A DNA stretch of 64,000 nucleotides from assembly GCF_050320075.1 (NCBI RefSeq), contig NZ_CP190018.1. The stretch is one strand, 5' to 3'. Below the pieces are notes generated by a model, which saw nothing but the letters and a program-made list of their open reading frames with translations, searched no databases and was not told the origin of the DNA. This DNA is from Escherichia coli (GTDB lineage: Bacteria; Pseudomonadota; Gammaproteobacteria; Enterobacterales; Enterobacteriaceae). How positions within the stretch are numbered: position 1 is the first letter of the stretch; the number at the start of each line of letters is the position of its first letter. Of this stretch, positions 41,961-55,999 are shown one piece after another. Position numbers and translations under genes: made by a program.

Positions 41961-43209
41961 GAGTTCCCCGCGCCAGCGGGGATAAACCGTTTGCTGAGTG
42001 TGCATACACACTTGAACATCAGAGTTCCCCGCGCCAGCGGGGATAAACCGCTATCAGTAACAACCTGGTAAATATCGGTTTTGAGTTCCCCGCGCCAGCG
42101 GGGATAAACCGTTTTCGGGGCCATAAATGGCGCTCATTTATGTGAGTTCCCCGCGCCAGCGGGGATAAACCGGGAAAATAAACGCGTTATTCCTTGATGG
42201 GTGCGAGTTCCCCGCGCCAGCGGGGATAAACCGAGCAACAGGTATTTCATATGGCCTGCCGTGCTGAGTTCCCCGCGCCAGCGGGGATAAACCGGCCAGC
42301 GGCGCTGAGTACGACGACCTGATTAAGAGTTCCCCGCGCCAGCGGGGATAAACCGTCAATACAACAGCAATGCTGGAGCTGGAAAAAGAGTTCCCCGCGC
42401 CAGCGGGGATAAACCGTGGTGGGATAGCTGCTCTGCCAGCGTGTCGCGGAGTTCCCCGCGCCAGCGGGGATAAACCGTGGGCGCAGCTCATGTATTCCAA
42501 TAAGGATATGAGTTCCCCGCGCCAGCGGGGATAAACCGAGATTCGCGCAATGTACGGTAAAGACAGCACCGAGTTCCCCGCGCCAGCGGGGATAAACCGC
42601 CATTCTTGTTGTCGTTCATCAAGCGCAGGGGGAGTTTCCCGCGCCAGCGGGGATAAACCGTTTGTTTTGATGATTTATCAGTATATGAATTGGAGTTCCC
42701 CGCGCCAGCGGGGATAAACCGATTTTTGCGCGGCCTGCATGAAACCAGTGGCAAAGTTCCCCGCGCCAGCGGGGATAAACCGGTACCGTTGAGCAATGGT
42801 GGGTAAATGGTGCTGAGTTCCCCGCGCCAGCGGGGATAAACCGATTTAGATACGGCACACAGGAATGCGCTGGATGAGTTCCCCGCGCCAGCGGGGATAA
42901 ACCGCATGGGAGTCCAGATTACAAATTCCAGAATGGGAGTTCCCCGCGCCAGCGGGGATAAACCGCGCCAGTCTGAGGTTTTCCGGTCATACATCGTGAG
43001 TTCCCCGCGCCAGCGGGGATAAACCGACCGTTGCTACACATATGATCAGGCATGTGCCGAGTTCCCCGCGCCAGCGGGGATAAACCGGACGATGAGACGC
43101 CCTGGTGTGCCGCGTTCGTGAGTTCCCCGCGCCAGCGGGGATAAACCGCGTTTAGCTCCGCAATGTTGGATATCACTGATGAGTTCCCCGCACCAGCGGG
43201 AATAAACCA
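41961..43209 (+). CRISPR. type I-E CRISPR array, 21 repeats and 20 spacers
   Basis: 29-bp repeat GAGTTCCCCGCGCCAGCGGGGATAAACCG recurring with exact 61-bp periodicity (41961 + 61n); all spacers 32 bp and unique; last repeat (43181-43209) degenerate. Confidence 0.98.
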
Positions 43210-43846: not shown

Positions 43847-45325
43847 TTACGCATTCGACCAGCTCTGGATCGAATCCGCATTCCCCAATTCCCCATGCAT
43901 CACTTCATACGATTTTTTCAGGATTACATCAGTATGTTTGGTTAACTCCTTGAAAATGCCTTTATTCATCGCGTTGTAGCGTTTGGCGTTGCTCTCAACA
44001 GGCATAAAGATATCTTTCACGCGAACCATTTTGTCGACAGCCGTTGCGTAATCCGGGTATAGCCCCAGACCTACCGCCGTATTAATCGCTGCCCCCAGGC
44101 TTGCACAACCATTAATGGCGTTACGGCGTGCCGGAAGGTTGAACACGTCGGCAAAAATCTGCATAAACAGATCGCTGTTCGAACCGCCGCCAGTAATGAT
44201 CACATGCTTTGCAAAGTGATTCATTTCATTACACATATTGTCGTAATTGTTCTTCAGCGTCAGCGCCACGCTTTCCAGTATCGAACGATATATCCATGCG
44301 TAATCCATGCTGGAATCAAAGCCAATCATAATCCCGCGTTTGTACGGTTCCCACGGATTGGTCAGCCAGTCCAGCACCGTCATCAGACCATTACAGCCTG
44401 GCGGCACACAAGACGCTTTTTTGTTGAGCAAATCTTCCGGTGAAAGATCCTGTGCTTTGGCATCCTGAATTAACGACTCGCCTAACATGTCGCGTAGCCA
44501 GCTCACCGTCCACATGCCTTTGCGAATACCGTAACCTTCATACAGCAAGGTTTGCGGAATAGAAGACATAATCGGCCAGTACGCTACCGGATCTTTCGGT
44601 AGTAATTTGCCGTTCATCATCAACGCGATGTAAGTGCCAAGAGAAATTACCGCAGTTTCATCATCCAGTAACCCGGCTCCCAGTGCTTCTACCGGTTTAT
44701 CACTGGTGGTACAAACAACCGGCAGCCCAGCCGGGAAATGTGTCGCCAGCGCGGCTTGAGGAGTGATATGCCCAAGAACAGTGCCCGGCATTTGCACATC
44801 AAACAGCATATGACGGGGGATATTAAACTTCTCCATGACTGCGGCATCTTCACTCCATGCCCAGGTCTTATAATCCACCGGCCACTGACCAAAATAGTTG
44901 GCGATATTGTCTTTAAACTCGCCGGTTAAGCGATGCGTCAGATAACCCGAAAAAGAGGTGACATATGCCACGTCAGGATTCGTATGTTCGTAAGGGCGTG
45001 TAACGCGTGCATCCTGCCAGCTAATCAACGGCGCAGCTGGCGTGCCATCGGCTTTCAATAACGCACGGCAGCAACGGATGGATCCCAGACCAATACCGAC
45101 AATATCTTCTTTATTTCCGGCAAACTGACTCATCAAATCGTGACCGGCAAAGCATAATGATGCCCATAAATCGTCGTCAGGATGTTCTGCGGTATCGGCA
45201 TCTGGCGTGTGCATCGGCTGCAATAAGCCTTTGCCTTCGCAAACCACATTACCTTCCAGATCGTACATCACCACTTTTGTGCTCTGACTTCCACCATCAA
45301 TCCCTATGATGTATTTTTTCGACAT
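43847..45325 (-). CDS. ygcE: FGGY-family carbohydrate kinase
   Basis: 492-aa ORF with FGGY kinase N- and C-terminal domain signatures. Confidence 0.85.
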   Translation of the reverse strand: MSKKYIIGIDGGSQSTKVVMYDLEGNVVCEGKGLLQPMHTPDADTAEHPDDDLWASLCFAGHDLMSQFAGNKEDIVGIGLGSIRCCRALLKADGTPAAPLISWQDARVTRPYEHTNPDVAYVTSFSGYLTHRLTGEFKDNIANYFGQWPVDYKTWAWSEDAAVMEKFNIPRHMLFDVQMPGTVLGHITPQAALATHFPAGLPVVCTTSDKPVEALGAGLLDDETAVISLGTYIALMMNGKLLPKDPVAYWPIMSSIPQTLLYEGYGIRKGMWTVSWLRDMLGESLIQDAKAQDLSPEDLLNKKASCVPPGCNGLMTVLDWLTNPWEPYKRGIMIGFDSSMDYAWIYRSILESVALTLKNNYDNMCNEMNHFAKHVIITGGGSNSDLFMQIFADVFNLPARRNAINGCASLGAAINTAVGLGLYPDYATAVDKMVRVKDIFMPVESNAKRYNAMNKGIFKELTKHTDVILKKSYEVMHGELGNADSIQSWSNA

Positions 45326-45351
45326 GATTTTTCTCCTGTAATTTTCTGGAC

Positions 45352-46629
45352 TTACTTGCTGCTAGCCATAGCAGGGGCGCTATCAGCAGTACGAATTTTT
45401 TGGAACAGCAAAAAGGTAAAGACGATCACCATGGCAAGCGCCGCCATGCCCATCAGCCACATATTGCGGTAGGCTTCTGCAGCGGGCAGGGTGTCTTGCC
45501 AGTAGCCGATAATCGGGTAAACGAAGACATCCGGCAGGAATCCAATCACCGAACAAATACCTACCGTGGTGCCCATAATGTAAGACGGTGTTCTCGCTTC
45601 GCCAGGGCAGGCCCAGTACAGCCCGCGTGAGGCGTAACAGGTGAATCCCAGCAGTAAAATCAGGCCAATCCCCATCGCGACCGATTGCGGGTTAGAGTTC
45701 GTGACGAGCAGGGCAGTTAACGCCAGCAAGCCGAGTACGGAAAGGATTTGGATCACGCGGGTAGGGGATTTCACTTTGCTGTAGGTGGTGATAATGCCGC
45801 CAAGTGGGCCGCACAGCGCGCGGAAGATTTTGTTGATCACAATCCCCATGTAGCTCGCCGCCACCAGCGACATGCCGTACATTTCGGTCAGATAGTTGGT
45901 GGAGTAACTCAGAATGGCGTAGATGGTGAAGACGCCAAAAATCACCATGCTGCAATACCAGGTGGTGCTGATGCGCAAAACGGCCAGGATGTCGCTAAGC
46001 TGGAATGACTGTTTTTCTTCGTTATTGGCACTGCGCAGATTGTTGTTATCGCTAACAAAAAACCAGCACAGAATCCCCAACAAGATGTAAACCACACTAT
46101 AGATGATGATGACCGTTTTCAGACTGGCGCTGTCATCCGGAGCGAAGCGAGAAAAGACCCACATGGTAAACACCGCCAGCGACATTACACCGACGCCGCG
46201 CAGCCCTTCCATCCAGCCCATAATTTTCCCTTGCTCGCTATGATCGCCCAGCAATGAGGCGGCTTTAATCGACACCGACCACAGCATTAAAATAGTGGTT
46301 ATCGCAAAGGCGACCTGAATACAGAGCATTACCCACAGCGGTGGATATGTTGCCATTAACAGACCCAGTAATCCGGTAATGATCATCGCGGAAGTAATCA
46401 TTTTGCGGTGTGAAAATTTATCGGCAATAACGCCGCTGGGGGCATAAAGAATAATGGCCGCAATACCAAATGTACTCATTATTAAACCTATCTCGGTATT
46501 GCTGAATCCCATAAATTTCGCTATGGGAATTTGATAAATATAACGTAAATAAGCCAGGTCGAAACTAACGCCGCCGCTAAAACTAATTATCGCGAGGGTT
46601 ATCCAACGGCGATATGAGTTGTGTTGCAT
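45352..46629 (-). CDS. yqcE: MFS transporter
   Basis: 425-aa polytopic membrane ORF, 26 bp upstream of ygcE on the same strand. Confidence 0.85.
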   Translation of the reverse strand: MQHNSYRRWITLAIISFSGGVSFDLAYLRYIYQIPIAKFMGFSNTEIGLIMSTFGIAAIILYAPSGVIADKFSHRKMITSAMIITGLLGLLMATYPPLWVMLCIQVAFAITTILMLWSVSIKAASLLGDHSEQGKIMGWMEGLRGVGVMSLAVFTMWVFSRFAPDDSASLKTVIIIYSVVYILLGILCWFFVSDNNNLRSANNEEKQSFQLSDILAVLRISTTWYCSMVIFGVFTIYAILSYSTNYLTEMYGMSLVAASYMGIVINKIFRALCGPLGGIITTYSKVKSPTRVIQILSVLGLLALTALLVTNSNPQSVAMGIGLILLLGFTCYASRGLYWACPGEARTPSYIMGTTVGICSVIGFLPDVFVYPIIGYWQDTLPAAEAYRNMWLMGMAALAMVIVFTFLLFQKIRTADSAPAMASSK

Positions 46630-46653
46630 ATCGTATTCCCATTTGTAATAGAC

Positions 46654-46701
46654 AAAAAAAAGAGAAAAGTAAGCCGCCCTTTCAGGTGGATTACTTTTCT
46701 C
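46654..46701 (-). terminator. intrinsic-terminator-like hairpin in the yqcE leader
   Basis: On the minus strand GAGAAAAGTAA-18 nt loop-TTACTTTTCTC followed by U8, ending 25 nt upstream of the yqcE ATG. Confidence 0.6.
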
Positions 46702-46876
46702 AGGTCTCTAGTAATTGCAATAAGAAATAACATGGAAAGCAGTGGTGTTGTGTGAGAGTAATCACGCTTCTGCTTTTTAAAATTATTTGACAATTCGAAT
46801 ATCACACTGTGATTACGATCACATTAGCGATTATGCCCTTATGATAAAAATTATCTCCAGTTACCAGAGATAATGA

Positions 46877-46923
46877 GAAAGGTAACTTCCCTCTCGCGGG
46901 GGAAGTTACCTTTCTTTTTTTTT
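46877..46923 (+). terminator. intrinsic-terminator-like hairpin in the ygcW leader
   Basis: Perfect 15-bp stem GAAAGGTAACTTCCC / GGGAAGTTACCTTTC with 8-nt loop, followed by T9; ends 25 nt upstream of the ygcW ATG. Confidence 0.65.
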
Positions 46924-46947
46924 GCCTTACGGAAATTGGAGCTAACT

Positions 46948-47733
46948 ATGTCAATCGAATCTCTCAATGCGTTCTCAATGGATTTTTTCTCCCTGAAAGG
47001 TAAAACCGCAATTGTTACCGGCGGGAATAGCGGTTTAGGCCAGGCATTTGCCATGGCGCTGGCCAAAGCAGGCGCAAATATCTTTATTCCAAGCTTCGTT
47101 AAAGATAACGGCGAAACAAAGGAAATGATTGAAAAACAGGGTGTTGAGGTGGACTTCATGCAGGTGGATATCACCGCAGAAGGCGCGCCGCAGAAGATAA
47201 TCGCCGCCTGTTGCGAACGTTTCGGTACCGTCGATATTCTGATTAACAATGCCGGTATTTGTAAGCTGAATAAGGTGCTGAACTTCGGTCGTGCCGACTG
47301 GGACCCGATGATTGATGTGAACCTGACCGCCGCATTCGAGTTAAGCTATGAAGCTGCAAAAATTATGATCCCGCAGAAAAGCGGTAAAATCATTAATATC
47401 TGTTCATTATTCTCTTACTTAGGTGGACAATGGTCACCTGCATATTCTGCCACTAAACATGCTCTTGCCGGATTCACCAAAGCTTACTGTGATGAACTAG
47501 GTCAATATAATATTCAGGTAAATGGTATTGCCCCTGGCTATTATGCAACAGATATTACGCTGGCGACACGCAGTAATCCAGAAACCAATCAGCGCGTTCT
47601 TGATCATATTCCGGCAAACCGTTGGGGCGATACTCAGGATTTAATGGGCGCAGCCGTATTCCTCGCAAGTCCGGCATCGAATTATGTCAACGGACATTTA
47701 TTAGTGGTTGATGGTGGTTATTTAGTGCGCTAA
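46948..47733 (+). CDS. ygcW: short-chain dehydrogenase/reductase (KduD / gluconate-5-dehydrogenase-like)
   Basis: ORF 46873..47733; start placed at MSIESLNAF giving 261 aa; SDR motifs TGGNSGLG and YxxxK. Confidence 0.85.
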   Translation: MSIESLNAFSMDFFSLKGKTAIVTGGNSGLGQAFAMALAKAGANIFIPSFVKDNGETKEMIEKQGVEVDFMQVDITAEGAPQKIIAACCERFGTVDILINNAGICKLNKVLNFGRADWDPMIDVNLTAAFELSYEAAKIMIPQKSGKIINICSLFSYLGGQWSPAYSATKHALAGFTKAYCDELGQYNIQVNGIAPGYYATDITLATRSNPETNQRVLDHIPANRWGDTQDLMGAAVFLASPASNYVNGHLLVVDGGYLVR

Positions 47734-47802
47734 TCCATAACGGTGGTTTCTGTTTTCTCTTATTAATGATTATTCCATTTTTATTATCAGGAAGGAATTA
47801 CT

Positions 47803-49257
47803 ATGTCTTTATCTCGCGCAGCGATTGTCGACCAGCTAAAGGAAATTGTTGGTGCAGATCGCGTAATTACCGATGAAACAGTATTAAAGAAGAACAGTAT
47901 TGACCGTTTTCGCAAATTTCCGGATATTCATGGCATTTATACTTTGCCGATTCCGGCAGCGGTCGTAAAACTCGGTTCCACAGAACAAGTATCCCGTGTG
48001 CTGAATTTTATGAATGCGCACAAAATTAACGGTGTGCCGCGTACCGGTGCTTCCGCTACCGAAGGTGGGCTGGAAACCGTTGTGGAAAACTCGGTGGTGC
48101 TCGACGGCTCTGCCATGAATCAAATCATTAATATTGATATTGAGAATATGCAGGCCACGGCGCAATGCGGAGTTCCGCTGGAAGTGCTGGAAAACGCGTT
48201 GCGTGAAAAAGGTTACACCACGGGGCATTCTCCGCAGTCAAAGCCGCTGGCGCAGATGGGCGGCCTGGTAGCAACCCGCAGTATCGGGCAGTTCTCCACA
48301 CTCTACGGCGCAATCGAAGATATGGTCGTTGGTCTGGAAGCAGTATTGGCTGATGGCACCGTAACACGCATTAAAAACGTACCACGCCGCGCGGCAGGCC
48401 CGGACATTCGTCACATCATCATCGGCAACGAAGGTGCATTGTGCTATATCACTGAAGTAACTGTGAAAATCTTTAAGTTCACCCCGGAAAACAACCTCTT
48501 CTACGGCTATATCCTGGAAGACATGAAAACCGGCTTCAACATCCTGCGTGAAATCATGGTGGAAGGGTATCGTCCGTCGATCGCTCGTTTGTATGACGCT
48601 GAAGATGGCACCCAACACTTCACCCATTTTGCTGACGGAAAATGCGTGCTGATCTTTATGGCTGAAGGTAACCCTCGCATTGCGAAGGCGACGGGCGAAG
48701 GGATTGCTGAAATCGTGGCACGTTACCCGCAATGCCAGCGAGTGGACAGCAAGCTGATCGAAACCTGGTTTAACAACCTGAACTGGGGACCGGATAAAGT
48801 AGCTGCCGAACGTGTGCAGATCCTCAAAACCGGCAACATGGGCTTTACCACCGAAGTGTCCGGCTGCTGGAGCTGCATTCACGAAATCTACGAAAGCGTT
48901 ATTAACCGTATTCGTACCGAGTTCCCGCACGCCGACGACATCACCATGCTGGGCGGTCACTCCTCTCACAGCTACCAGAACGGCACCAACATGTACTTCG
49001 TTTACGACTACAACGTTGTTGACTGTAAGCCGGAAGAGGAAATCGACAAGTACCACAATCCGCTCAACAAAATCATCTGCGAAGAAACCATTCGCCTCGG
49101 TGGTTCGATGGTGCACCACCACGGCATTGGTAAACATCGCGTTCACTGGAGCAAGCTGGAACACGGCAGCGCGTGGACGTTGCTGGAAGGTCTGAAAAAG
49201 CAGTTCGATCCTAACGGCATTATGAATACGGGTACTATCTATCCGATTGAAAAATAA
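47803..49257 (+). CDS. ygcU: FAD-linked oxidase (GlcD / alkyl-DHAP-synthase-like)
   Basis: 484-aa ORF with FAD-binding PCMH-type domain. Confidence 0.85.
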   Translation: MSLSRAAIVDQLKEIVGADRVITDETVLKKNSIDRFRKFPDIHGIYTLPIPAAVVKLGSTEQVSRVLNFMNAHKINGVPRTGASATEGGLETVVENSVVLDGSAMNQIINIDIENMQATAQCGVPLEVLENALREKGYTTGHSPQSKPLAQMGGLVATRSIGQFSTLYGAIEDMVVGLEAVLADGTVTRIKNVPRRAAGPDIRHIIIGNEGALCYITEVTVKIFKFTPENNLFYGYILEDMKTGFNILREIMVEGYRPSIARLYDAEDGTQHFTHFADGKCVLIFMAEGNPRIAKATGEGIAEIVARYPQCQRVDSKLIETWFNNLNWGPDKVAAERVQILKTGNMGFTTEVSGCWSCIHEIYESVINRIRTEFPHADDITMLGGHSSHSYQNGTNMYFVYDYNVVDCKPEEEIDKYHNPLNKIICEETIRLGGSMVHHHGIGKHRVHWSKLEHGSAWTLLEGLKKQFDPNGIMNTGTIYPIEK

Positions 49258-49298
49258 TGTGTCAGGCAGCGTTCCGCGATGACGGGGCGTTGCCTTTT

Positions 49299-49328
49299 CG
49301 GCTTCTCAGGCGAGAAGCCGTTCTTATT
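49299..49328 (+). terminator. hairpin between ygcU and ygcS (weak terminator or attenuator)
   Basis: CGGCTTCTC-aggc-GAGAAGCCG followed by TTCTTATT. Confidence 0.45.
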
Positions 49329-49350
49329 ACCGGACAATGAAGGGATAAAG

Positions 49351-50688
49351 ATGAACACTTCACCGGTGCGAATGGATGATTTACCACTTAACCGTTTTCA
49401 CTGCCGCATTGCTGCGCTCACTTTCGGCGCACACCTGACCGACGGTTATGTCCTCGGCGTCATTGGTTACGCCATTATTCAGCTTACGCCCGCCATGCAA
49501 CTGACGCCGTTTATGGCGGGAATGATTGGCGGCTCAGCACTCCTTGGTTTGTTTCTTGGCAGCCTGGTTCTGGGCTGGATCTCCGACCATATTGGGCGAC
49601 AAAAAATCTTCACCTTCAGCTTTTTGCTGATTACGCTTGCTTCGTTTTTACAATTTTTTGCCACCACGCCAGAGCATCTTATTGGACTGCGCATTTTGAT
49701 TGGCATTGGTCTGGGAGGCGATTACTCAGTCGGTCACACCTTGCTGGCTGAATTTTCCCCGCGCCGCCACCGCGGTATTTTGCTGGGCGCGTTCAGCGTG
49801 GTGTGGACTGTAGGCTATGTGCTGGCAAGTATTGCCGGACATCACTTTATTAGCGAAAGCCCGGAGGCCTGGCGCTGGCTGCTGGCATCGGCAGCTCTGC
49901 CCGCATTGTTGATTACGTTATTACGCTGGGGAACGCCAGAATCGCCACGCTGGCTACTGCGCCAGGGGCGTTTTGCAGAAGCTCACGCTATCGTGCATCG
50001 CTATTTTGGTCCCCATGTTTTACTGGGCGATGAAGTGGCAACGGCGACCCATAAACACATCAAAACCTTGTTCTCTTCGCGCTACTGGCGGCGCACAGCG
50101 TTTAACAGCGTCTTCTTTGTCTGCCTCGTAATCCCATGGTTTGTGATTTATACCTGGCTGCCAACTATCGCCCAGACTATTGGTCTGGAAGATGCGTTGA
50201 CCGCTAGCCTGATGCTTAATGCGTTGTTAATTGTGGGTGCGCTGCTGGGATTAGTTCTGACGCACCTGCTGGCACATCGCAAATTTTTGCTGGGAAGTTT
50301 TTTGCTGCTGGCGGCAACGCTGGTAGTGATGGCTTGTTTGCCTTCCGGCAGTTCATTAACGCTGCTGCTTTTTGTTCTCTTCAGCACCACCATTTCGGCA
50401 GTCAGTAATCTGGTGGGCATTTTGCCTGCGGAAAGTTTTCCTACTGACATTCGCTCGCTGGGCGTCGGTTTTGCCACCGCCATGAGTCGGTTGGGCGCGG
50501 CGGTAAGTACTGGCCTGCTGCCGTGGGTGCTGGCGCAGTGGGGAATGCAAGTCACCTTATTGCTCCTGGCGGCAGTGTTGTTGGTTGGTTTTGTCGTGAC
50601 CTGGCTATGGGCACCAGAAACCAAAGCACTCCCGCTGGTGGCGGCGGGAAATGTTGGAGGTGCGAATGAACATTCTGTTAGCGTTTAA
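49351..50688 (+). CDS. ygcS: MFS sugar-porter-type transporter
   Basis: ORF 49279..50688; start placed at MNTSPVRMDDL giving 445 aa; 12-TM profile. Confidence 0.85.
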   Translation: MNTSPVRMDDLPLNRFHCRIAALTFGAHLTDGYVLGVIGYAIIQLTPAMQLTPFMAGMIGGSALLGLFLGSLVLGWISDHIGRQKIFTFSFLLITLASFLQFFATTPEHLIGLRILIGIGLGGDYSVGHTLLAEFSPRRHRGILLGAFSVVWTVGYVLASIAGHHFISESPEAWRWLLASAALPALLITLLRWGTPESPRWLLRQGRFAEAHAIVHRYFGPHVLLGDEVATATHKHIKTLFSSRYWRRTAFNSVFFVCLVIPWFVIYTWLPTIAQTIGLEDALTASLMLNALLIVGALLGLVLTHLLAHRKFLLGSFLLLAATLVVMACLPSGSSLTLLLFVLFSTTISAVSNLVGILPAESFPTDIRSLGVGFATAMSRLGAAVSTGLLPWVLAQWGMQVTLLLLAAVLLVGFVVTWLWAPETKALPLVAAGNVGGANEHSVSV

Positions 50689-51445
50689 AGCCGAACCGGA
50701 TGCCGGAATGCTGGCGGAAAAAGAGTGGCAGGCGGCGGCTCAGGGTAATAGCGGACCGGATGTTTCGCTTCTGCGAAGTTTGCTCGGTGCTGATGAACAG
50801 GCTGCCGCCGCGCTGCTGTTGGCGCAGAGAAAAAACGGTACGTCGATGTCTTTAACCGCGTTGAGCATGGGGGATGAACGGGCGTTGCACTGGCTGCGCT
50901 ATCTTATGGCTCTTGGGTTTGAGGAAGCTGTATTGCTGGAGACGGCGGCAGATCTGCGCTTTGCGCCGGAATTTGTCGCTCGCCATATTGCCGAATGGCA
51001 GTACCAGAATCCGCTGGAGCTGATAATTACTGGCTGCCAAAGCAGCGAAGGGCAGAATGGGCAAACGCCATTTTTGCTGGCGGAAATGCTGGGCTGGCCC
51101 TGCTTCACCCAGGTGGAGCGTTTTACTCTCGACGCGCCGTTTATCACCCTTGAACAGCGTACTGAAAACGGGCTGCGCTGTTGCCGGGTTCGCTTGCCTG
51201 CGGTGATTGCCGTGCGTCAGTGCGGTGAAGTGGCCTTGCCAGTACCGGGAATGCGTCAGCGAATGGCGGTGGGGAAAGCAGCAATTATCCGTAAAACTGT
51301 TGCTGCCGAATCGCCAGCGATGCAGTGTCTGCAACTGGCAAGAGCAGAGCAACAACGCGGAGCGACGCTGATTGATGGGCAAACGGTAGCAGAAAAAGCG
51401 CAAAAGCTATGGCAGGACTATTTACGCCAAAGGATGCAGCCATGA
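50666..51445 (+). CDS. ygcR: electron-transfer flavoprotein beta-subunit-like (FixA-like)
   Basis: ORF 50651..51445; start placed at MNILLAFK giving 259 aa; overlaps ygcS 3' end. Confidence 0.8.
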   Translation: MNILLAFKAEPDAGMLAEKEWQAAAQGNSGPDVSLLRSLLGADEQAAAALLLAQRKNGTSMSLTALSMGDERALHWLRYLMALGFEEAVLLETAADLRFAPEFVARHIAEWQYQNPLELIITGCQSSEGQNGQTPFLLAEMLGWPCFTQVERFTLDAPFITLEQRTENGLRCCRVRLPAVIAVRQCGEVALPVPGMRQRMAVGKAAIIRKTVAAESPAMQCLQLARAEQQRGATLIDGQTVAEKAQKLWQDYLRQRMQP

Positions 51446-52302
51446 ATATCGCAATTGTGACAATAAATCAGGAGAATGCCGCAACAGCGAGCTGGCAGGC
51501 GGCGCAGGATTTCAGCGGTTGTACCCTGGCGCACTGGAAGATTGAACCTCAGCCCGCTGTGGCGGAACAGGTGCTGGATGCGCTGGTGGAACAGTGGCAG
51601 CGAACGCCAGCGGACGTTGTTCTCTTTCCGCCGGGAACGTTTGGCGATGAACTGTCGACCCGGCTGGCCTGGCGTTTACATGGTGCAAGCATCTGCCAGG
51701 TGACTTCGTTAGATATTCCAACCGTAAGCGTGCGCAAATCCCACTGGGGAAATGCGCTAACGGCGACGCTGCAAACAGAAAAACGCCCGCTATGCCTTTC
51801 GCTGGCACGTCAGGCGGGAGCAGATAAAAACGCCACGTTGCCCTCTGGTATGCAGCAACTGAACATTGTCCCAGGTGCGCTTCCCGACTGGCTGGTTAGC
51901 ATAGAAAACCTGAAAAATGTTACCCGCGACCCATTAGCTGAGGCCAGACGGGTGCTGGTGGTGGGGCAGGGCGGAGAGGCAGATAACCAGGAAATCGCTA
52001 TGCTGGCAGAAAAGCTGGGAGCCGAAGTGGGCTACAGTCGGGCACGAGTGATGAACGGTGGCGTTGATGCCGAAAAAGTGATTGGTATTTCTGGACATCT
52101 GCTGGCACCTGAGGTGTGTATTGTTGTTGGCGCTTCCGGCGCAGCAGCGTTAATGGCGGGCGTACGCAATAGCAAGTTTGTGGTGGCGATTAATCATGAC
52201 GCCAGCGCAGCGGTATTTTCACAGGCAGATGTTGGCGTGGTTGATGACTGGAAAGTGGTGCTGGAGGCACTGGTGACAAACATTCACGCAGAATGCCAAT
52301 AA
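51442..52302 (+). CDS. ygcQ: electron-transfer flavoprotein alpha-subunit-like (FixB-like)
   Basis: ORF 51409..52302; start placed at MNIAIVTINQ giving 286 aa; ATGA overlap with ygcR. Confidence 0.8.
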   Translation: MNIAIVTINQENAATASWQAAQDFSGCTLAHWKIEPQPAVAEQVLDALVEQWQRTPADVVLFPPGTFGDELSTRLAWRLHGASICQVTSLDIPTVSVRKSHWGNALTATLQTEKRPLCLSLARQAGADKNATLPSGMQQLNIVPGALPDWLVSIENLKNVTRDPLAEARRVLVVGQGGEADNQEIAMLAEKLGAEVGYSRARVMNGGVDAEKVIGISGHLLAPEVCIVVGASGAAALMAGVRNSKFVVAINHDASAAVFSQADVGVVDDWKVVLEALVTNIHAECQ

Positions 52303-52350
52303 CGTGCAGCCGGATGATCCTGCCTACGGTTTCGGGCTGGGGACTTGTAA

Positions 52351-53124
<774 letters not shown>

Positions 53125-53228
53125 ATCAGCATACTTGTCCTTAGCCTTCTGCAGTGACAGCTGGTAGTACAGCGTGCTTCTGGCCAGCCCTGCAGCCTTT
53201 AACAGGTCAGACTGGCAGTGTCCGCACC

Positions 53229-53750
53229 TCAGGCTCCGGATGACTTTCGTTTTTTCTCCAGCTCCTGGCGCTTTTTTTCCAGGAGATGCTCCTGCATGGC
53301 TTTCAGATATGCATTTTCTGCGCGAAGATAACGTAGCTCATTCTTCATCTCTTCCGGCGTCATGTTTGCCTCGTTTTCATGGGTATCATCAGAACGGGTC
53401 ATGCTTTTCTCCTTCCTGCGCCTGATAAAGGCCTCATTACCAGATTTGCGGTAGCCTTTTATCCAGTTTTTAACCGTGTTGTGGCTGGGAATGTTAAACC
53501 GGGCAGCTACCCGGGGTAGAGACTCAGAATGCCCGAGAGCATAAAGAACCACGCAAAGTTTATCTTCAGGAGAATAGCTACGCTTGTGTCTGCAATCCAG
53601 TGCCCGAGGACCGTGAAGAAGAAAAAGATTAATCCAGTGTGAGAGGCTGGTGTGAGAAAGTTGAAAGAGTTTTGCCGTAGAAATGATGCCTGCATGACCA
53701 GCCAGGTAATGATTTACAGCGGCAAGTTTTACTTCAAATGAATGTTTCAT
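53229..53750 (-). CDS. IS3-family transposase OrfA (HTH DNA-binding, leucine-zipper region)
   Basis: ORF 53229..53759; likely ATG start at 53748-53750 (MKHSFEVKLAAVNHY) giving 173 aa. Confidence 0.85.
   Translation of the reverse strand: MKHSFEVKLAAVNHYLAGHAGIISTAKLFQLSHTSLSHWINLFLLHGPRALDCRHKRSYSPEDKLCVVLYALGHSESLPRVAARFNIPSHNTVKNWIKGYRKSGNEAFIRRRKEKSMTRSDDTHENEANMTPEEMKNELRYLRAENAYLKAMQEHLLEKKRQELEKKRKSSGA
53271..53278 (-). other. candidate -1 programmed ribosomal frameshift site (A AAA AAG)
   Basis: Minus-strand A7G run about 45 nt upstream of the orfA stop, at the orfA/orfB overlap. Confidence 0.6.
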
Positions 53751-53801
53751 AAACTGCACCTTCAGATGTCAGATTATGTCCAACATTTGGGGTGCAGTTC
53801 A

Positions 53802-53819
53802 TCAAGCGTCGCATCAGGC
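53802..53819. repeat. right half of the REP split by the IS insertion (TCAA plus arm)
   Basis: TCAA + GCGTCGCATCAGGC, complementary to the left half at 52351-52365. Confidence 0.7.
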
Positions 53820-53884
53820 GCTGAATGTCGGATGTGGCGTGCAGCCTACAAATCACACAAATTCAACTCGTTACGAGTATCCCG

Positions 53885-54460
53885 TCAAAGCAATTTTTTC
53901 GCTAACGTCCAGACCCCGGTATTCGTGGTGGAAAGCGCCACAACACCCGCGTTAATCGCATTACGCGCATCTTCTTCATCGCACACCAGCCCGCCGGCAA
54001 TCAGCGGTTGGCGGATTTTCTCCGTCACCCAGCCCAGCACTTTAGGCATACAGCCTGGCAGGATCTCAATACAATCCGGATTCGATTGCGCAACTTGCTT
54101 ATCAATGTTGTGAAACGAAATCGAATCAACAATAAACAGGCGATGAATACAGAAAAAACCTTCCGCTCTTGCCGCTTTCAGCATCGATGCTTTCGTGCTG
54201 ATAATGCCGTCCGCCTCGGTCACCAGTTTCAGAAACTGAATCACCACTTCTTTGTTCGATGCGCCTTCCAGCAAATCAACATGAATAAAGGCATATTTTC
54301 CGGCGTTTTTAATCTTTTTAACGATATTACTGATGGTGCAGATATTGCCGTACAACACTGAAATAAACTGGCATTCAGAATCGATTGCCAGTTGCAGGCT
54401 GGCATTATCTTTAACGGCAGCAATCACCGGATTCTGGCGGAGCAGGTGTAAGAGGGGCAT
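53885..54460 (-). CDS. ygcP: GlpP-like glycerol-3-phosphate-responsive antiterminator family protein
   Basis: 191-aa ORF recognised as YgcP (G3P-antiterminator family). Confidence 0.8.
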   Translation of the reverse strand: MPLLHLLRQNPVIAAVKDNASLQLAIDSECQFISVLYGNICTISNIVKKIKNAGKYAFIHVDLLEGASNKEVVIQFLKLVTEADGIISTKASMLKAARAEGFFCIHRLFIVDSISFHNIDKQVAQSNPDCIEILPGCMPKVLGWVTEKIRQPLIAGGLVCDEEDARNAINAGVVALSTTNTGVWTLAKKLL

Positions 54461-54476
54461 AAATTATCCTTATTAT

Positions 54477-54737
54477 TTATCCAAAGCGGTAGGTGATGCC
54501 GAATCCGGAAGGCGGATAGCGCCACTGTTGTAGTGTTGATTCGTCGCACAGCAAACGGCAGGTGCCACACTCCAGGCAGCCGCGATAATCAACGCGTAAG
54601 TCACCTTCCGGTGTGAGCGAAAAAAGACCAGCCGGACAAGCGTTAATCAACCGTTGTACCGTCTGGCGCTCAACGGAGTCAGCCGGAACAATGTGCGGCG
54701 CATCGGCAACGCGCCAGAGATTACGGGCTACAGACAT
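54477..54737 (-). CDS. ygcO: FixX-like ferredoxin
   Basis: ORF 54477..54773; start placed at MSVARNLW giving 86 aa; Cys cluster CLECGTCRLLC. Confidence 0.8.
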   Translation of the reverse strand: MSVARNLWRVADAPHIVPADSVERQTVQRLINACPAGLFSLTPEGDLRVDYRGCLECGTCRLLCDESTLQQWRYPPSGFGITYRFG

Positions 54738-55999
54738 CGCAGACTCCTGATAACATCGCCCGCCAGATGCCACAGGCCGTGACGACGTAAATGACGCCAG
54801 AATAACTGGCGCAGCGGTGGAACAGGTTTATCACCCTGATCCCATAAATCGCGGGAAATATCCTGCATTAACGCAGGCCACGCACGGTACCAGCCAGGGC
54901 GTTGCAAAAGCGCCGGAACATGCTGATAACGTTGTAGAACATCCCATAGCAGGCTGCGCTCGACGTTGTGATGATAAAGCGGAAACAGATTTTGCGGCTC
55001 GCGGTGCTGGCAGGCGCTTATCAGCGTTTGTGCCGCCGCCTGCGCGCCAGTTAGCGCCATATCCATGCCGCGCACGGAAATTCCGGTATTGACGCAACTG
55101 CGCAACGCATCGCCCAGCAGCAGCCAGCCGTTACCGGCGTATTGCACCGGCATACTGTGCAAGCCACCTTCTGGCACCAGATGCGCACCATACTCCAGTG
55201 ATTCCGTGTTTTTGATAAGCGGGCGCACTGCCGGATGCGTTTTAAAGCGAGCCAGCAGCTCGCTTGCCGGAACACGACTTTGCGTAAGGGAAGAGAGCGG
55301 GCAAACAATCCCTAACGAGAGCGTTTGTTGATTAGTATAAAGAAATGCGCCGCCGGGTAAGTCATCACAGATCCCGCCGCTGAACAGCAACGCTGCGTCT
55401 TCGTTATTCTCCAGATGAAAACGTTCTTCAATAGCGGATGTTTCCAGCGACAGCACTTCTTTGATCCCCAACGCCATCGCTTCGCCAGCAGGACGAGTCA
55501 CTAACCCGTGACGTTCAGCCAGGACGCTGTTGGCACCTTCTGCCAGCACCACATAACGGGCGCGGAGAATATCGTCACCACAAATGACACCACACACCCT
55601 GCCGTTTTCTTCATACAGCGCATCCACCGTCGCACCGGGGATGCATTCGACACCTTCTTTTTCGGCTTCGGCAACCAGCCACGGATCGAACCGTGCACGT
55701 AATACACTCCAGGATTCACCGCCGGGCTGTAAGCTGGAAAACGTCGTTGCGCCATCCGGCGTTAGCAGAGAAAGGCTTTCGTGAGTGATGCGTCGTTCAA
55801 GAGGCGCGGTCAGATGAAATTGCGGGAGGAGTTCCGCGAGCGCATGGGTGTATAAACGCCCGCCGGAAAGATTTTTGCTGCCGGGGATTTCAGCGCGTTC
55901 CAGTAACAGAACGGACAAACCTGCCCGCGCGCAGCGTAAAGCACAAGCGGTACCTGCTATACCGGCACCAATAATAATAATGTCGCAGTTGTCTTCCAT
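54728..55999 (-). CDS. ygcN: FixC-like FAD-dependent oxidoreductase (ETF-quinone oxidoreductase family)
   Basis: ORF 54728..56029; start placed at MEDNCDIIIIGAGIAG giving 423 aa; FAD-binding GxGxxG. Confidence 0.82.
   Translation of the reverse strand: MEDNCDIIIIGAGIAGTACALRCARAGLSVLLLERAEIPGSKNLSGGRLYTHALAELLPQFHLTAPLERRITHESLSLLTPDGATTFSSLQPGGESWSVLRARFDPWLVAEAEKEGVECIPGATVDALYEENGRVCGVICGDDILRARYVVLAEGANSVLAERHGLVTRPAGEAMALGIKEVLSLETSAIEERFHLENNEDAALLFSGGICDDLPGGAFLYTNQQTLSLGIVCPLSSLTQSRVPASELLARFKTHPAVRPLIKNTESLEYGAHLVPEGGLHSMPVQYAGNGWLLLGDALRSCVNTGISVRGMDMALTGAQAAAQTLISACQHREPQNLFPLYHHNVERSLLWDVLQRYQHVPALLQRPGWYRAWPALMQDISRDLWDQGDKPVPPLRQLFWRHLRRHGLWHLAGDVIRSLRCL

Follow-up and report, generated by a model that had tools for sequence, protein, structure and literature searches.

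Antiterminator proteins and their leader RNAs

In Bacillus subtilis, GlpP together with glycerol-3-phosphate relieves the terminator located in the 5' untranslated region (UTR) of glpD, glpFK and glpTQ (PMC9604022). The glpD 5' UTR alone confers GlpP-dependent glycerol induction on foreign promoters, and no induction via this leader was observed in a glpP deletion strain (PMC9604022). The present analysis concerns two leader terminators, and a helix that competes with each of them, in the spacer between the divergent genes yqcE and ygcW of Escherichia coli. They are carried by a stretch of 64,000 nucleotides from assembly GCF_050320075.1 (contig NZ_CP190018.1), hereafter the window, whose positions are used throughout. 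The ygc cluster to which both genes belong (43847-55999) also encodes a relative of GlpP, YgcP.

The glpD 5' UTR (Table S4 of PMC9604022) reads ...ACGGUC CUGAGAUGAGGAGA GACCACAGC..., followed by a long terminator and U5. It contains a GGUC/GACC helix whose loop, CUGAGAUGAGGAGA, carries GAGA repeats. This helix is the minimum-free-energy fold of the 5' segment, and its 3' strand begins the 5' arm of the terminator. The literature examined offered no definition of the GlpP RNA site at nucleotide level. The ygc leaders have in common with this system the protein family, a terminator directly after the promoter, a GAGA-loop helix that, as judged by eye and by folding, feeds the terminator 5' arm, a probable coupling to catabolite control and a kinase that could make the inducer. 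On the contrary, the ygc targets are not glycerol genes but encode a short-chain dehydrogenase/reductase (SDR), a flavin adenine dinucleotide (FAD)-linked oxidase, an electron-transfer flavoprotein (ETF), an FGGY kinase and major facilitator superfamily (MFS) transporters. The host is Gram-negative, and two copies point outward from one divergent region, each behind a putative class II CRP promoter. The helix sequence differs as well (GUUAC/GUAAC in ygc, GGUC/GACC in glpD). The same layout was observed in leaders of Lachnoclostridium and Faecalibacterium that precede glycerol-3-phosphate-dehydrogenase-like genes beside glpP. By this architectural resemblance, the ygc leaders look like members of a broader class of GlpP-family targets.

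Another point of comparison is the bgl system of E. coli, with BglG and its ribonucleic antiterminator (RAT), and the related cases of SacY, SacT and LicT. Like bgl, the ygc locus would combine a CRP-dependent promoter and a leader terminator in a cryptic H-NS-bound locus, and in both the terminator 5' arm is partly shared with a weak RNA stem-loop that would need a protein to be held. However, BglG is made of CAT-PRD domains and is controlled by the phosphotransferase system, and RAT differs from the ygc leader in sequence and structure. Annotation and NCBIfam revealed no CAT-PRD antiterminator among the products of the ygc cluster and the leader matched no Rfam family, which places the system outside the BglG/SacY-RAT group. 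To our knowledge, very few protein-dependent antitermination systems acting at intrinsic terminators exist in E. coli K-12. HutP and TRAP, which bind NAG triplets, offer a further parallel: the ygc loop has repeated GAG triplets and crystal entries of the PF04309 family hold 4-8 chains, so that recognition of repeated triplets by a YgcP-type oligomer is conceivable by analogy. Nevertheless, the folds are unrelated, the ygc loop contains only two or three GAG repeats, and TRAP promotes termination instead of preventing it.

Two intrinsic terminators in the divergent leaders

Gene calls were taken from the list of open reading frames (ORFs) and from the RefSeq annotation of an identical record, E. 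coli strain CFSAN061763, to which bases 46400-47200 show 100% identity (98% to K-12-like strains). The divergent spacer covers 46630-46947, which agrees with the 318 bp given by a first-pass annotation of this DNA. The latter had also proposed a terminator hairpin about 25 nt ahead of each start codon, with a perfect 15-bp stem (46877-46914) and T9 before ygcW on the plus strand, and an 11-bp stem (46662-46701) and U8 before yqcE on the minus strand. Both were borne out by folding.

The ygcW-leader terminator (46875-46923, plus strand) consists of a 19-bp stem (46875-46916) with the loop TCGC and of a U9 tract (46915-46923) that ends 24 nt ahead of the ATG. The stem holds a perfect Watson-Crick core of 15 bp (46877-46891 with 46900-46914), and its predicted free energy is -31 kcal/mol (z = -7.4; 0 of 200 shuffles as stable). 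In the yqcE-leader terminator (46654-46701, minus strand), the stem runs from 46701 to 46662 and the U8 tract from 46661 to 46654, ending likewise 24 nt ahead of the ATG. Its 11-bp base (46701-46691 with 46672-46662) is topped by an imperfect G/C-rich part, for a predicted -22.1 kcal/mol (z = -3.5; also 0 of 200 shuffles). At both sites a G/C-rich stem is thus directly followed by a U tract, as in intrinsic terminators, and a consensus scan of the intergenic region found 8 terminator-like sites for 1.8 expected. No T-run was found on the opposite strand of either hairpin, so each terminates only towards the gene it precedes. The two hairpins, described at first pass as matched, proved to be so in sequence as well as in shape. 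Their stems share the bases GAGAAARGUAA...UUACYUUUCU, with an A:U to G:C exchange between the copies, and the pattern GAGAAARGTAA..TTACYTTTCT occurs at two sites only in the 64-kb window, namely the two hairpins, against 0.00 expected from shuffles.

Termination at these hairpins can be seen in published Term-seq data for strain MG1655 grown in lysogeny broth (LB) to an optical density of 0.4 (Adams et al. 2021, eLife 10:e62438; PMC7815308, supplementary file 3). One K-12 3' end, 2900311(-), lies 38 nt upstream of ygcW (mean reads 40,640, Rho score 0.50, intrinsic-terminator score 15.8) and another, 2900556(+), 36 nt upstream of yqcE (mean reads 1,557, Rho score 0.61, intrinsic-terminator score 11.4) (PMC7815308). 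Both were scored 'No' for Rho dependence, i.e. they are not bicyclomycin-sensitive, and were classed as orphan ends upstream of ygcW and yqcE; they are absent from the main text and no regulatory element was assigned to them (PMC7815308). Mapped on the K-12 sequence, they correspond to window positions 46910 (...GAAGUUACC) in the ygcW leader and 46665 (...GGCUUACUUUU) in the yqcE leader. The position of the ends at the hairpins implies that transcripts enter both from upstream and stop there. Short terminated leaders in both directions, proposed at first pass as something to look for, are therefore seen as Rho-independent 3' ends, and RNA running into the hairpins does not agree with start sites lying downstream of them. 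Both hairpins are almost certainly leader terminators acting in vivo.

The abundance of the ygcW-leader end (40,640 reads) raises another explanation, in which the terminated leaders are primarily trans-acting, CRP-activated small RNAs of ~55-65 nt with a strong terminator and a long U tail suited to Hfq. The predicted CRP-dependent promoters and the strongly conserved single-stranded GAGA-rich sequence described below would fit such a role. Nevertheless, the element lies directly upstream of a ygc gene, in the sense orientation, in every genome, including internal positions in Clostridium and one before a BCCT transporter gene in Sporomusa. The terminator/antiterminator logic is that of a cis element and no target is known. 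As the primary function this carries little probability; it is compatible with leader antitermination as a second one, and the abundant leaders might additionally act as CRP-dependent small RNAs.

A competing helix and probable antiterminator

Upstream of the terminator, the heptamer AGUUACU is complementary to AGUAACU within the terminator 5' arm. The resulting antiterminator stem-loop is found at 46859-46887 (plus strand) in the ygcW leader, where AGUUACC (46859-46865) pairs with GGUAACU (46881-46887) around the 15-nt loop AGAGAUAAUGAGAAA. In the yqcE leader it occupies 46690-46715 (minus strand), with AUUACU (46715-46710) paired to AGUAAU (46695-46690) around the 14-nt loop AGAGACCUGAGAAA. 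It is a weak stem-loop of 6-7 bp with a conserved GAGA-rich loop of 14-15 nt, AGAGA-N3-4-GAGAAA (AGAGAC-nAU-GAGAAA). The G/C-rich part of the terminator begins with the 3' strand of this stem, (A/G)GUAA(C/U), so that the two structures are mutually exclusive. The helix is the minimum-free-energy fold of the 5' segment in the ygcW leader (-6.7 kcal/mol, z = -3.6), in the yqcE leader (-1.4 kcal/mol) and in 10 of 12 lineages. Such a weak helix (-6.7 and -1.4 kcal/mol) facing strong terminators (-31 and -22 kcal/mol) has the profile of a protein-stabilised antiterminator.

Conservation was followed in 64 loci around YgcP relatives, one genome per species, in which the element was located by blastn of the spacer, motif scan and gene mapping. 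Of the 50 Enterobacterales loci with a ygcW-yqcE spacer, 49 carry two copies, which amounts to about 100 instances in about 50 loci at two per locus. The genera concerned are Escherichia, Citrobacter, Klebsiella, Enterobacter, Yokenella, Pluralibacter, Buttiauxella and Serratia, as well as Rahnella, Ewingella, Budvicia, Limnobaculum, Pantoea, Erwinia, Izhakiella and Enterobacillus. Without exception the two copies point towards yqcE and ygcW, also in the rearranged clusters of Serratia, Pantoea and Erwinia where ygcP abuts ygcE. An alignment of 74 sequences gave the consensus rTGnTA - ~12 nt - (C)AGUUACU AGAGAC nAU GAGAAAAGUAACUUCCC - loop - GGGGAGnUUrCUUUUCUC U8-9 G. RNAalifold recovered the terminator in it, with compensatory changes at 6 of 15 pairs. 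The hairpins are thus conserved in orthologous loci, as the first-pass annotation had required of leader attenuators, across ~50 Enterobacterales species and several Firmicutes. The 5' arm of the terminator, GAGAAAAGUAAC, is invariant, whereas the middle of the facing 3' arm drifts (CUUAC, CUUGC, UCUGC, GGCGAC, CAGAC...), frequently with mismatches. The 5' arm thus seems constrained by more than terminator pairing.

Support for the upstream helix itself came from the same alignment, where pairing holds in 92.9% of helix cells; shifting the partner by 1-3 columns lowers this to 15-54%. Double changes occur at two pairs, with G:C to A:U in the yqcE-type leaders of Enterobacteriaceae and U:A to C:G in the ygcW-type. 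The yqcE leader of the window carries the G:C to A:U double change relative to the consensus, with the pair kept. Among 17 hand-picked lineage representatives, 99.2% of cells are paired, 3 of 7 pairs show double changes and 5 cells are U.G. The variants include GUUACC/GGUAAC and AUUACU/AGUAAU, GUUGCC/GGCGAC in an Enterobacteriaceae metagenome-assembled genome, AGUUGCU/AGCGACU in Listeria and Bacillus, AAUUACU/AGUAAUU in Sporomusa and GUUUC/GAAAC in Faecalibacterium. An A-to-G change at position 56, in the 5' arm, is accompanied by U-to-C changes in both of its partners, the one in the terminator and the one upstream, the pattern expected from two competing helices. The leaders therefore contain a conserved alternative helix using part of the terminator 5' arm, as attenuators do, and the suggestion that the hairpins are leader attenuators is strengthened by a conserved, covarying and mutually exclusive element that the first-pass annotation had not mentioned. 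Regulation of both terminators by this competing helix is very likely.

Two other explanations of the conserved repeat were considered. AGTTACT-N15-AGTAACT could be a DNA operator for a dimeric repressor just 3' of each start, the hairpins being then ordinary terminators. An operator would fit the 7-bp inverted repeat found at ~+3 to +30 in each promoter, and a shift in the specificity of the protein could change both half-sites symmetrically. However, the one-sided changes tolerated in the helix are U.G wobbles, i.e. T opposite G (16 cells in the 74 sequences and 5 in the 17 representatives), which pair only in the RNA of this strand. In addition, none of the clusters encodes a DNA-binding regulator, and the 3' half-site overlaps the terminator arm in every lineage. 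An operator is hardly credible as the explanation. A protein-independent riboswitch, in which the stem-loop binds a metabolite itself and blocks the terminator, would share the classical layout of mutually exclusive terminator and antiterminator and would account for the strong conservation of the loop. Yet beyond a simple hairpin of 7 bp with its open 14-15-nt loop the element shows no conserved structure. It is found strictly in association with a PF04309 gene, and the analogous glpD leader needs GlpP (PMC9604022). The ygc element also matches no Rfam family: a scan of 45000-48500 against Rfam 15 with E up to 10 gave at best 26 bits for a gathering threshold of 90 (rliE, E = 0.26), which is noise. 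A riboswitch is very improbable here.

A further hairpin of 11 pairs is present on the minus strand at 46850-46874 (ATTATCTCTGG TAA CTGGAGATAAT, then TTTTAT), with G.U pairs on the minus strand only. It was classed as terminator-like by the consensus scan and overlaps the inferred ygcW start site. A role as anti-antiterminator was rejected on two grounds: the hairpin is not conserved beyond Escherichia, and the inferred start site falls downstream of its 5' half.

In Limnobaculum eriocheiris the ygcW-yqcE spacer is collapsed to ~160 bp (L032 13859-13979), with one hairpin between A9 and T9 and without promoters, CRP sites or antiterminator strands. It resembles the product of a deletion between inverted leader copies, and the cluster may be transcriptionally dead in this species.

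Linkage of the leader to ygcP

The first-pass annotation had placed YgcP in the GlpP family, and a full-length match to Pfam PF04309 (G3P_antiterm, E = 1.6e-62) agrees with it, as does a match to PDB entry 3kts (E = 1.2e-27). By annotation, NCBIfam and Pfam, YgcP is the only regulator-like product of the ygc cluster.

The leader and ygcP were found to occur together well beyond E. coli. Wherever enough flanking DNA is available, the ygcP gene is near the leader, in Enterobacterales, Vibrio, Listeria, Bacillus, Thalassobacillus, Clostridium and Sporomusa. A covariance model made from the enterobacterial leaders found in the window only the ygcW leader (88 bits) and the yqcE leader (87 bits), plus reverse-strand echoes. 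Elsewhere, ygc-like operons were matched at their 5' ends in Thalassobacillus (63 bits), in five species of Listeria and in one Bacillus. Three further lineages were retrieved via a YgcP-like protein alone and then scanned for the motif; all three (Vibrio, Clostridium and Sporomusa) carry two copies each at operon 5' ends, at 43-78 bits. Both copies of Vibrio hannami are in a divergent spacer (78 and 66 bits). In Clostridium sediminicola and in Sporomusa one copy precedes the SDR gene; the other precedes the FAD-linked oxidase gene in the former and a BCCT transporter gene in the latter. In the opposite direction, a metagenome scan with the motif only returned 5 contigs, all of them ygc clusters, with ygcP in 4 of the 4 that have enough flank. 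The association with a GlpP-family protein is consequently more than adjacency, since searches in either direction show motif and ygcP together across phyla, in a module made of SDR, FAD-linked oxidase, ETF subunits, FGGY kinase, transporter, YgcP and leader(s).

Regarding the positions of these copies, the second one of Clostridium sediminicola (L069 7263-7352) is internal to the gene array and flanked by the genes for the FGGY kinase and the FAD-linked oxidase, and that of Sporomusa in front of the BCCT-family transporter gene is at L071 18102-18194. In Vibrio, Clostridium and Sporomusa, BCCT transporters are found beside MFS transporters or in place of them, a possible clue to the class of substrate. 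Identity between E. coli and the Firmicute and Vibrio loci (L056-L071) is 71-80% for YgcW, 61-73% for YgcU, 54-62% for YgcP and 45-59% for YgcE. Because this is unusually high, it suggests that the whole ygc module was laterally transferred together with its leader RNA.

Within E. coli the element is confined to this locus: among 5,063 genomes it occurs at a median of 2 places per genome, in this locus only and never on plasmids. With two copies in the window and a single locus in these genomes, a mobile element or dispersed repeat was rejected. The covariance model gave no third copy before ygcN in the 77-bp queD-ygcN spacer.

Predicted promoters and CRP sites

Two class II CRP-dependent promoters, also absent from the first-pass annotation, are predicted in the spacer. 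In the alignment of 74 sequences, TGnTA, located ~12 nt upstream of the helix, varies little or not at all, and a CRP-like site is present 29.5-30.5 nt upstream of its -12 T in essentially every enterobacterial leader; this fixed spacing puts CRP at ~-41.5 of both promoters. The extended -10 of the ygcW promoter would be TGaTAAAAA (46842-46850, plus strand), with a predicted start at ~46857-46859, and that of the yqcE promoter TGtTATTTC (46724-46732, minus strand), with a predicted start at ~46717. On the K-12 chromosome these starts would fall at ~2900362-2900364(-) and ~2900505(+). CRP site 1, TGTGAgagtaaTCACG (46751-46766, centre 46758.5), is the predicted activator site of yqcE at ~-41.5. 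CRP site 2, TGTGATTACGATCACA (46808-46823, centre 46815.5), is a perfect consensus and would activate ygcW from ~-41.5. The latter was also predicted by PhyloScan; it is bound in vivo in chromatin immunoprecipitation sequencing of enterotoxigenic E. coli (PMC4287617), and in vitro in Footprint-seq with a dissociation constant of about 1.7 nM (PMC12871828). From these conserved elements we infer that both promoters are class II and CRP-dependent, and the predicted starts place the antiterminator at the very 5' end of the RNA. Firmicute homologues have a TTGACA/TTGACT-17-TATACT promoter at the same distance from the leader.

The supplements of Cappable-seq studies contain no start-site entry for the yqcE/ygcW region. 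Hexamers proposed from genomic systematic evolution of ligands by exponential enrichment (SELEX), TTGACA-16-TGTGAT for ygcW and TTCTCA-18-GATAAT for yqcE, were set aside as pattern guesses, the conserved TGnTA with CRP at -41.5 being preferred. Either choice places the start sites upstream of the hairpins.

Genomic SELEX also showed binding of the RNA polymerase holoenzyme to the yqcE/ygcW spacer, and H-NS was noted there too. It could thus be proposed that the hairpins are constitutive attenuators or insulators that silence a horizontally acquired, H-NS-bound cluster, whose expression would be set by CRP, H-NS or another factor with no role for YgcP. Strong termination in LB and the far greater stability of the terminators over the alternative helix speak in the same direction. 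On the other hand, constitutive silencing leaves the invariant upstream strand and the GAGA loop unexplained, and the upstream strand changes in step with the terminator 5' arm. Moreover, the cassette persists across phyla, always with ygcP. Silencing of this kind is therefore held to be unlikely, and antitermination by YgcP is preferred.

A model for YgcP-dependent antitermination

In the proposed model, the 318-bp region would be an inverted duplication of one regulatory cassette, one for each divergent ygc operon. Each cassette would comprise a class II CRP-dependent promoter with an extended -10 and then a leader of ~65 nt that starts almost directly with the weak stem-loop. By default the terminator would win (-31/-22 against -6.7/-1.4 kcal/mol) and transcription would stop ~25 nt before the start codon, as seen in LB. 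Ligand-loaded YgcP would bind the nascent 5' stem-loop and stabilise it, and as long as the stem-loop is held the terminator would be blocked, so that RNA polymerase would read into yqcE-ygcE and ygcW-U-S-R-Q. By analogy with glycerol-3-phosphate, GlpK and GlpP, the ligand is probably the phosphorylated product of the FGGY kinase YgcE, made from a substrate imported by YqcE. With a CRP promoter and a ligand-dependent read-through, expression would need both cAMP-CRP and inducer.

This combined model, in which CRP-activated promoters are followed by leader termination unless ligand-bound YgcP stabilises the antiterminator, is considered quite likely. That the stabilising factor is YgcP with its ligand is probable, and we infer stabilisation of the stem-loop by YgcP rather than another mode of action.

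Several observations weigh against these proposals. The start sites (~46857-46859 and ~46717) are predictions from conserved elements. The Term-seq ends are inside the A/U-rich lower stem, at its top, 13 nt short of the end of the U-run, and not in the U tract; this may reflect a U-rich tail trimmed by 3' exonucleases as far as the G/C-rich stem, or a mapping effect in U-rich sequence. The yqcE antiterminator is very weak, with 6 A/U-rich pairs, and at -1.4 kcal/mol it is no better than shuffles. Most helix positions are invariant, and the covariation amounts to a handful of independent events among representatives chosen by hand. In E. coli, ygcP belongs to a separate operon (ygcNOP) without a copy of the motif. 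In Serratia microhaemolytica (L045), ygcP has no leader motif within 17 kb. The likeness to the glpD leader is architectural, seen by eye and by folding, and is not a significant sequence match; covariance-model matches to clostridial glpD-like leaders are marginal (E = 8e-4 and 0.67). Finally, we know of RNA binding data within PF04309 only for B. subtilis GlpP.

The ygcP of Serratia microhaemolytica (L045 7431-7988) has 70% identity and is without other ygc genes within 17 kb; it may be an orphan copy, or the cluster may lie elsewhere.

Layout of the ygc locus

The first target operon, yqcE-ygcE (43847-46629, minus strand), comprises yqcE (45352-46629, ATG at 46629), encoding an MFS transporter, and ygcE (43847-45325), encoding an FGGY sugar/polyol kinase, according to annotation and NCBIfam. 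The second one, ygcW-ygcU-ygcS-ygcR-ygcQ (46948-52302, plus strand), was defined in the same way and starts with the SDR gene ygcW (46948-47733, ATG at 46948). It continues with ygcU (FAD-linked oxidase), ygcS (MFS transporter) and ygcR/ygcQ (ETF beta and alpha). The ygcP gene (53885-54460, minus strand), which encodes the proposed binder of both leaders, is followed by ygcO and ygcN. About 93% of E. coli genomes contain this ten-gene cluster, and its conservation extends from Enterobacterales to Clostridia.

The ORF list also contains a 286-aa frame (46873-47733), in frame with ygcW, that starts at an ATG in the terminator 5' arm (46873); the annotated ygcW start at 46948 has a GGAG Shine-Dalgarno sequence. 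A leader peptide starting at this upstream ATG was rejected since it is not conserved: at its position many species read GAAGAG or GACGAG in the 74-sequence alignment. By this comparison the upstream ATG is probably spurious.

Two other features were noted in the neighbourhood. An IS3-family transposase gene with a programmed frameshift (52402-53750) lies in the convergent ygcQ/ygcP spacer; the flanking ygcQ and ygcP seem intact, and the insertion is absent from K-12 and most other loci. A CRISPR (clustered regularly interspaced short palindromic repeats) array, annotated as direct_repeat in the identical RefSeq record, is located at ~42327-43209 between queE and ygcE, just 3' of the yqcE-ygcE operon.

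Concluding remarks

RefSeq annotations of E. coli carry no feature at the leader element, and the literature on ygcP, ygcW, yqcE and 'glycerol-3-phosphate responsive antiterminator' was not found to describe this circuit. On the regulation of these three genes it yielded only lists of CRP and SELEX sites and the unassigned Term-seq ends. The latter, reported by Adams et al. (PMC7815308), are the same two 3' ends as those of the leaders; that paper describes neither a link to YgcP nor the conserved motif or the antiterminator. As far as literature, Rfam and RefSeq annotation show, the circuit is thus undescribed, in line with the first-pass annotation. GlpP antitermination is known as a kind, and it is this instance, its RNA motif and its presence in E. 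coli that were not found described.

A wider proposal can be put forward tentatively, and is more doubtful than not: the ~30-nt AGAGA-N3-4-GAGA stem-loop might be what PF04309 antiterminators in general, including B. subtilis GlpP, recognise in RNA. E. coli would then have a second, so far unrecognised protein-RNA antitermination system beside Bgl, sensing a YgcE-made phosphorylated polyol or sugar other than glycerol-3-phosphate. The comparative alignment also suggests what GlpP-family proteins recognise in RNA. If confirmed, the circuit would add a GlpP-family system to E. coli together with an RNA target motif fit for a new RNA family, and it would explain two abundant, unassigned K-12 Term-seq 3' ends. 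The compact leader and protein pair could serve as a portable inducible switch, as glpD/GlpP does in Bacillus. It would also provide a handle on a ten-gene cluster of unknown function, since the inducer would reveal the substrate of the orphan ygc pathway.

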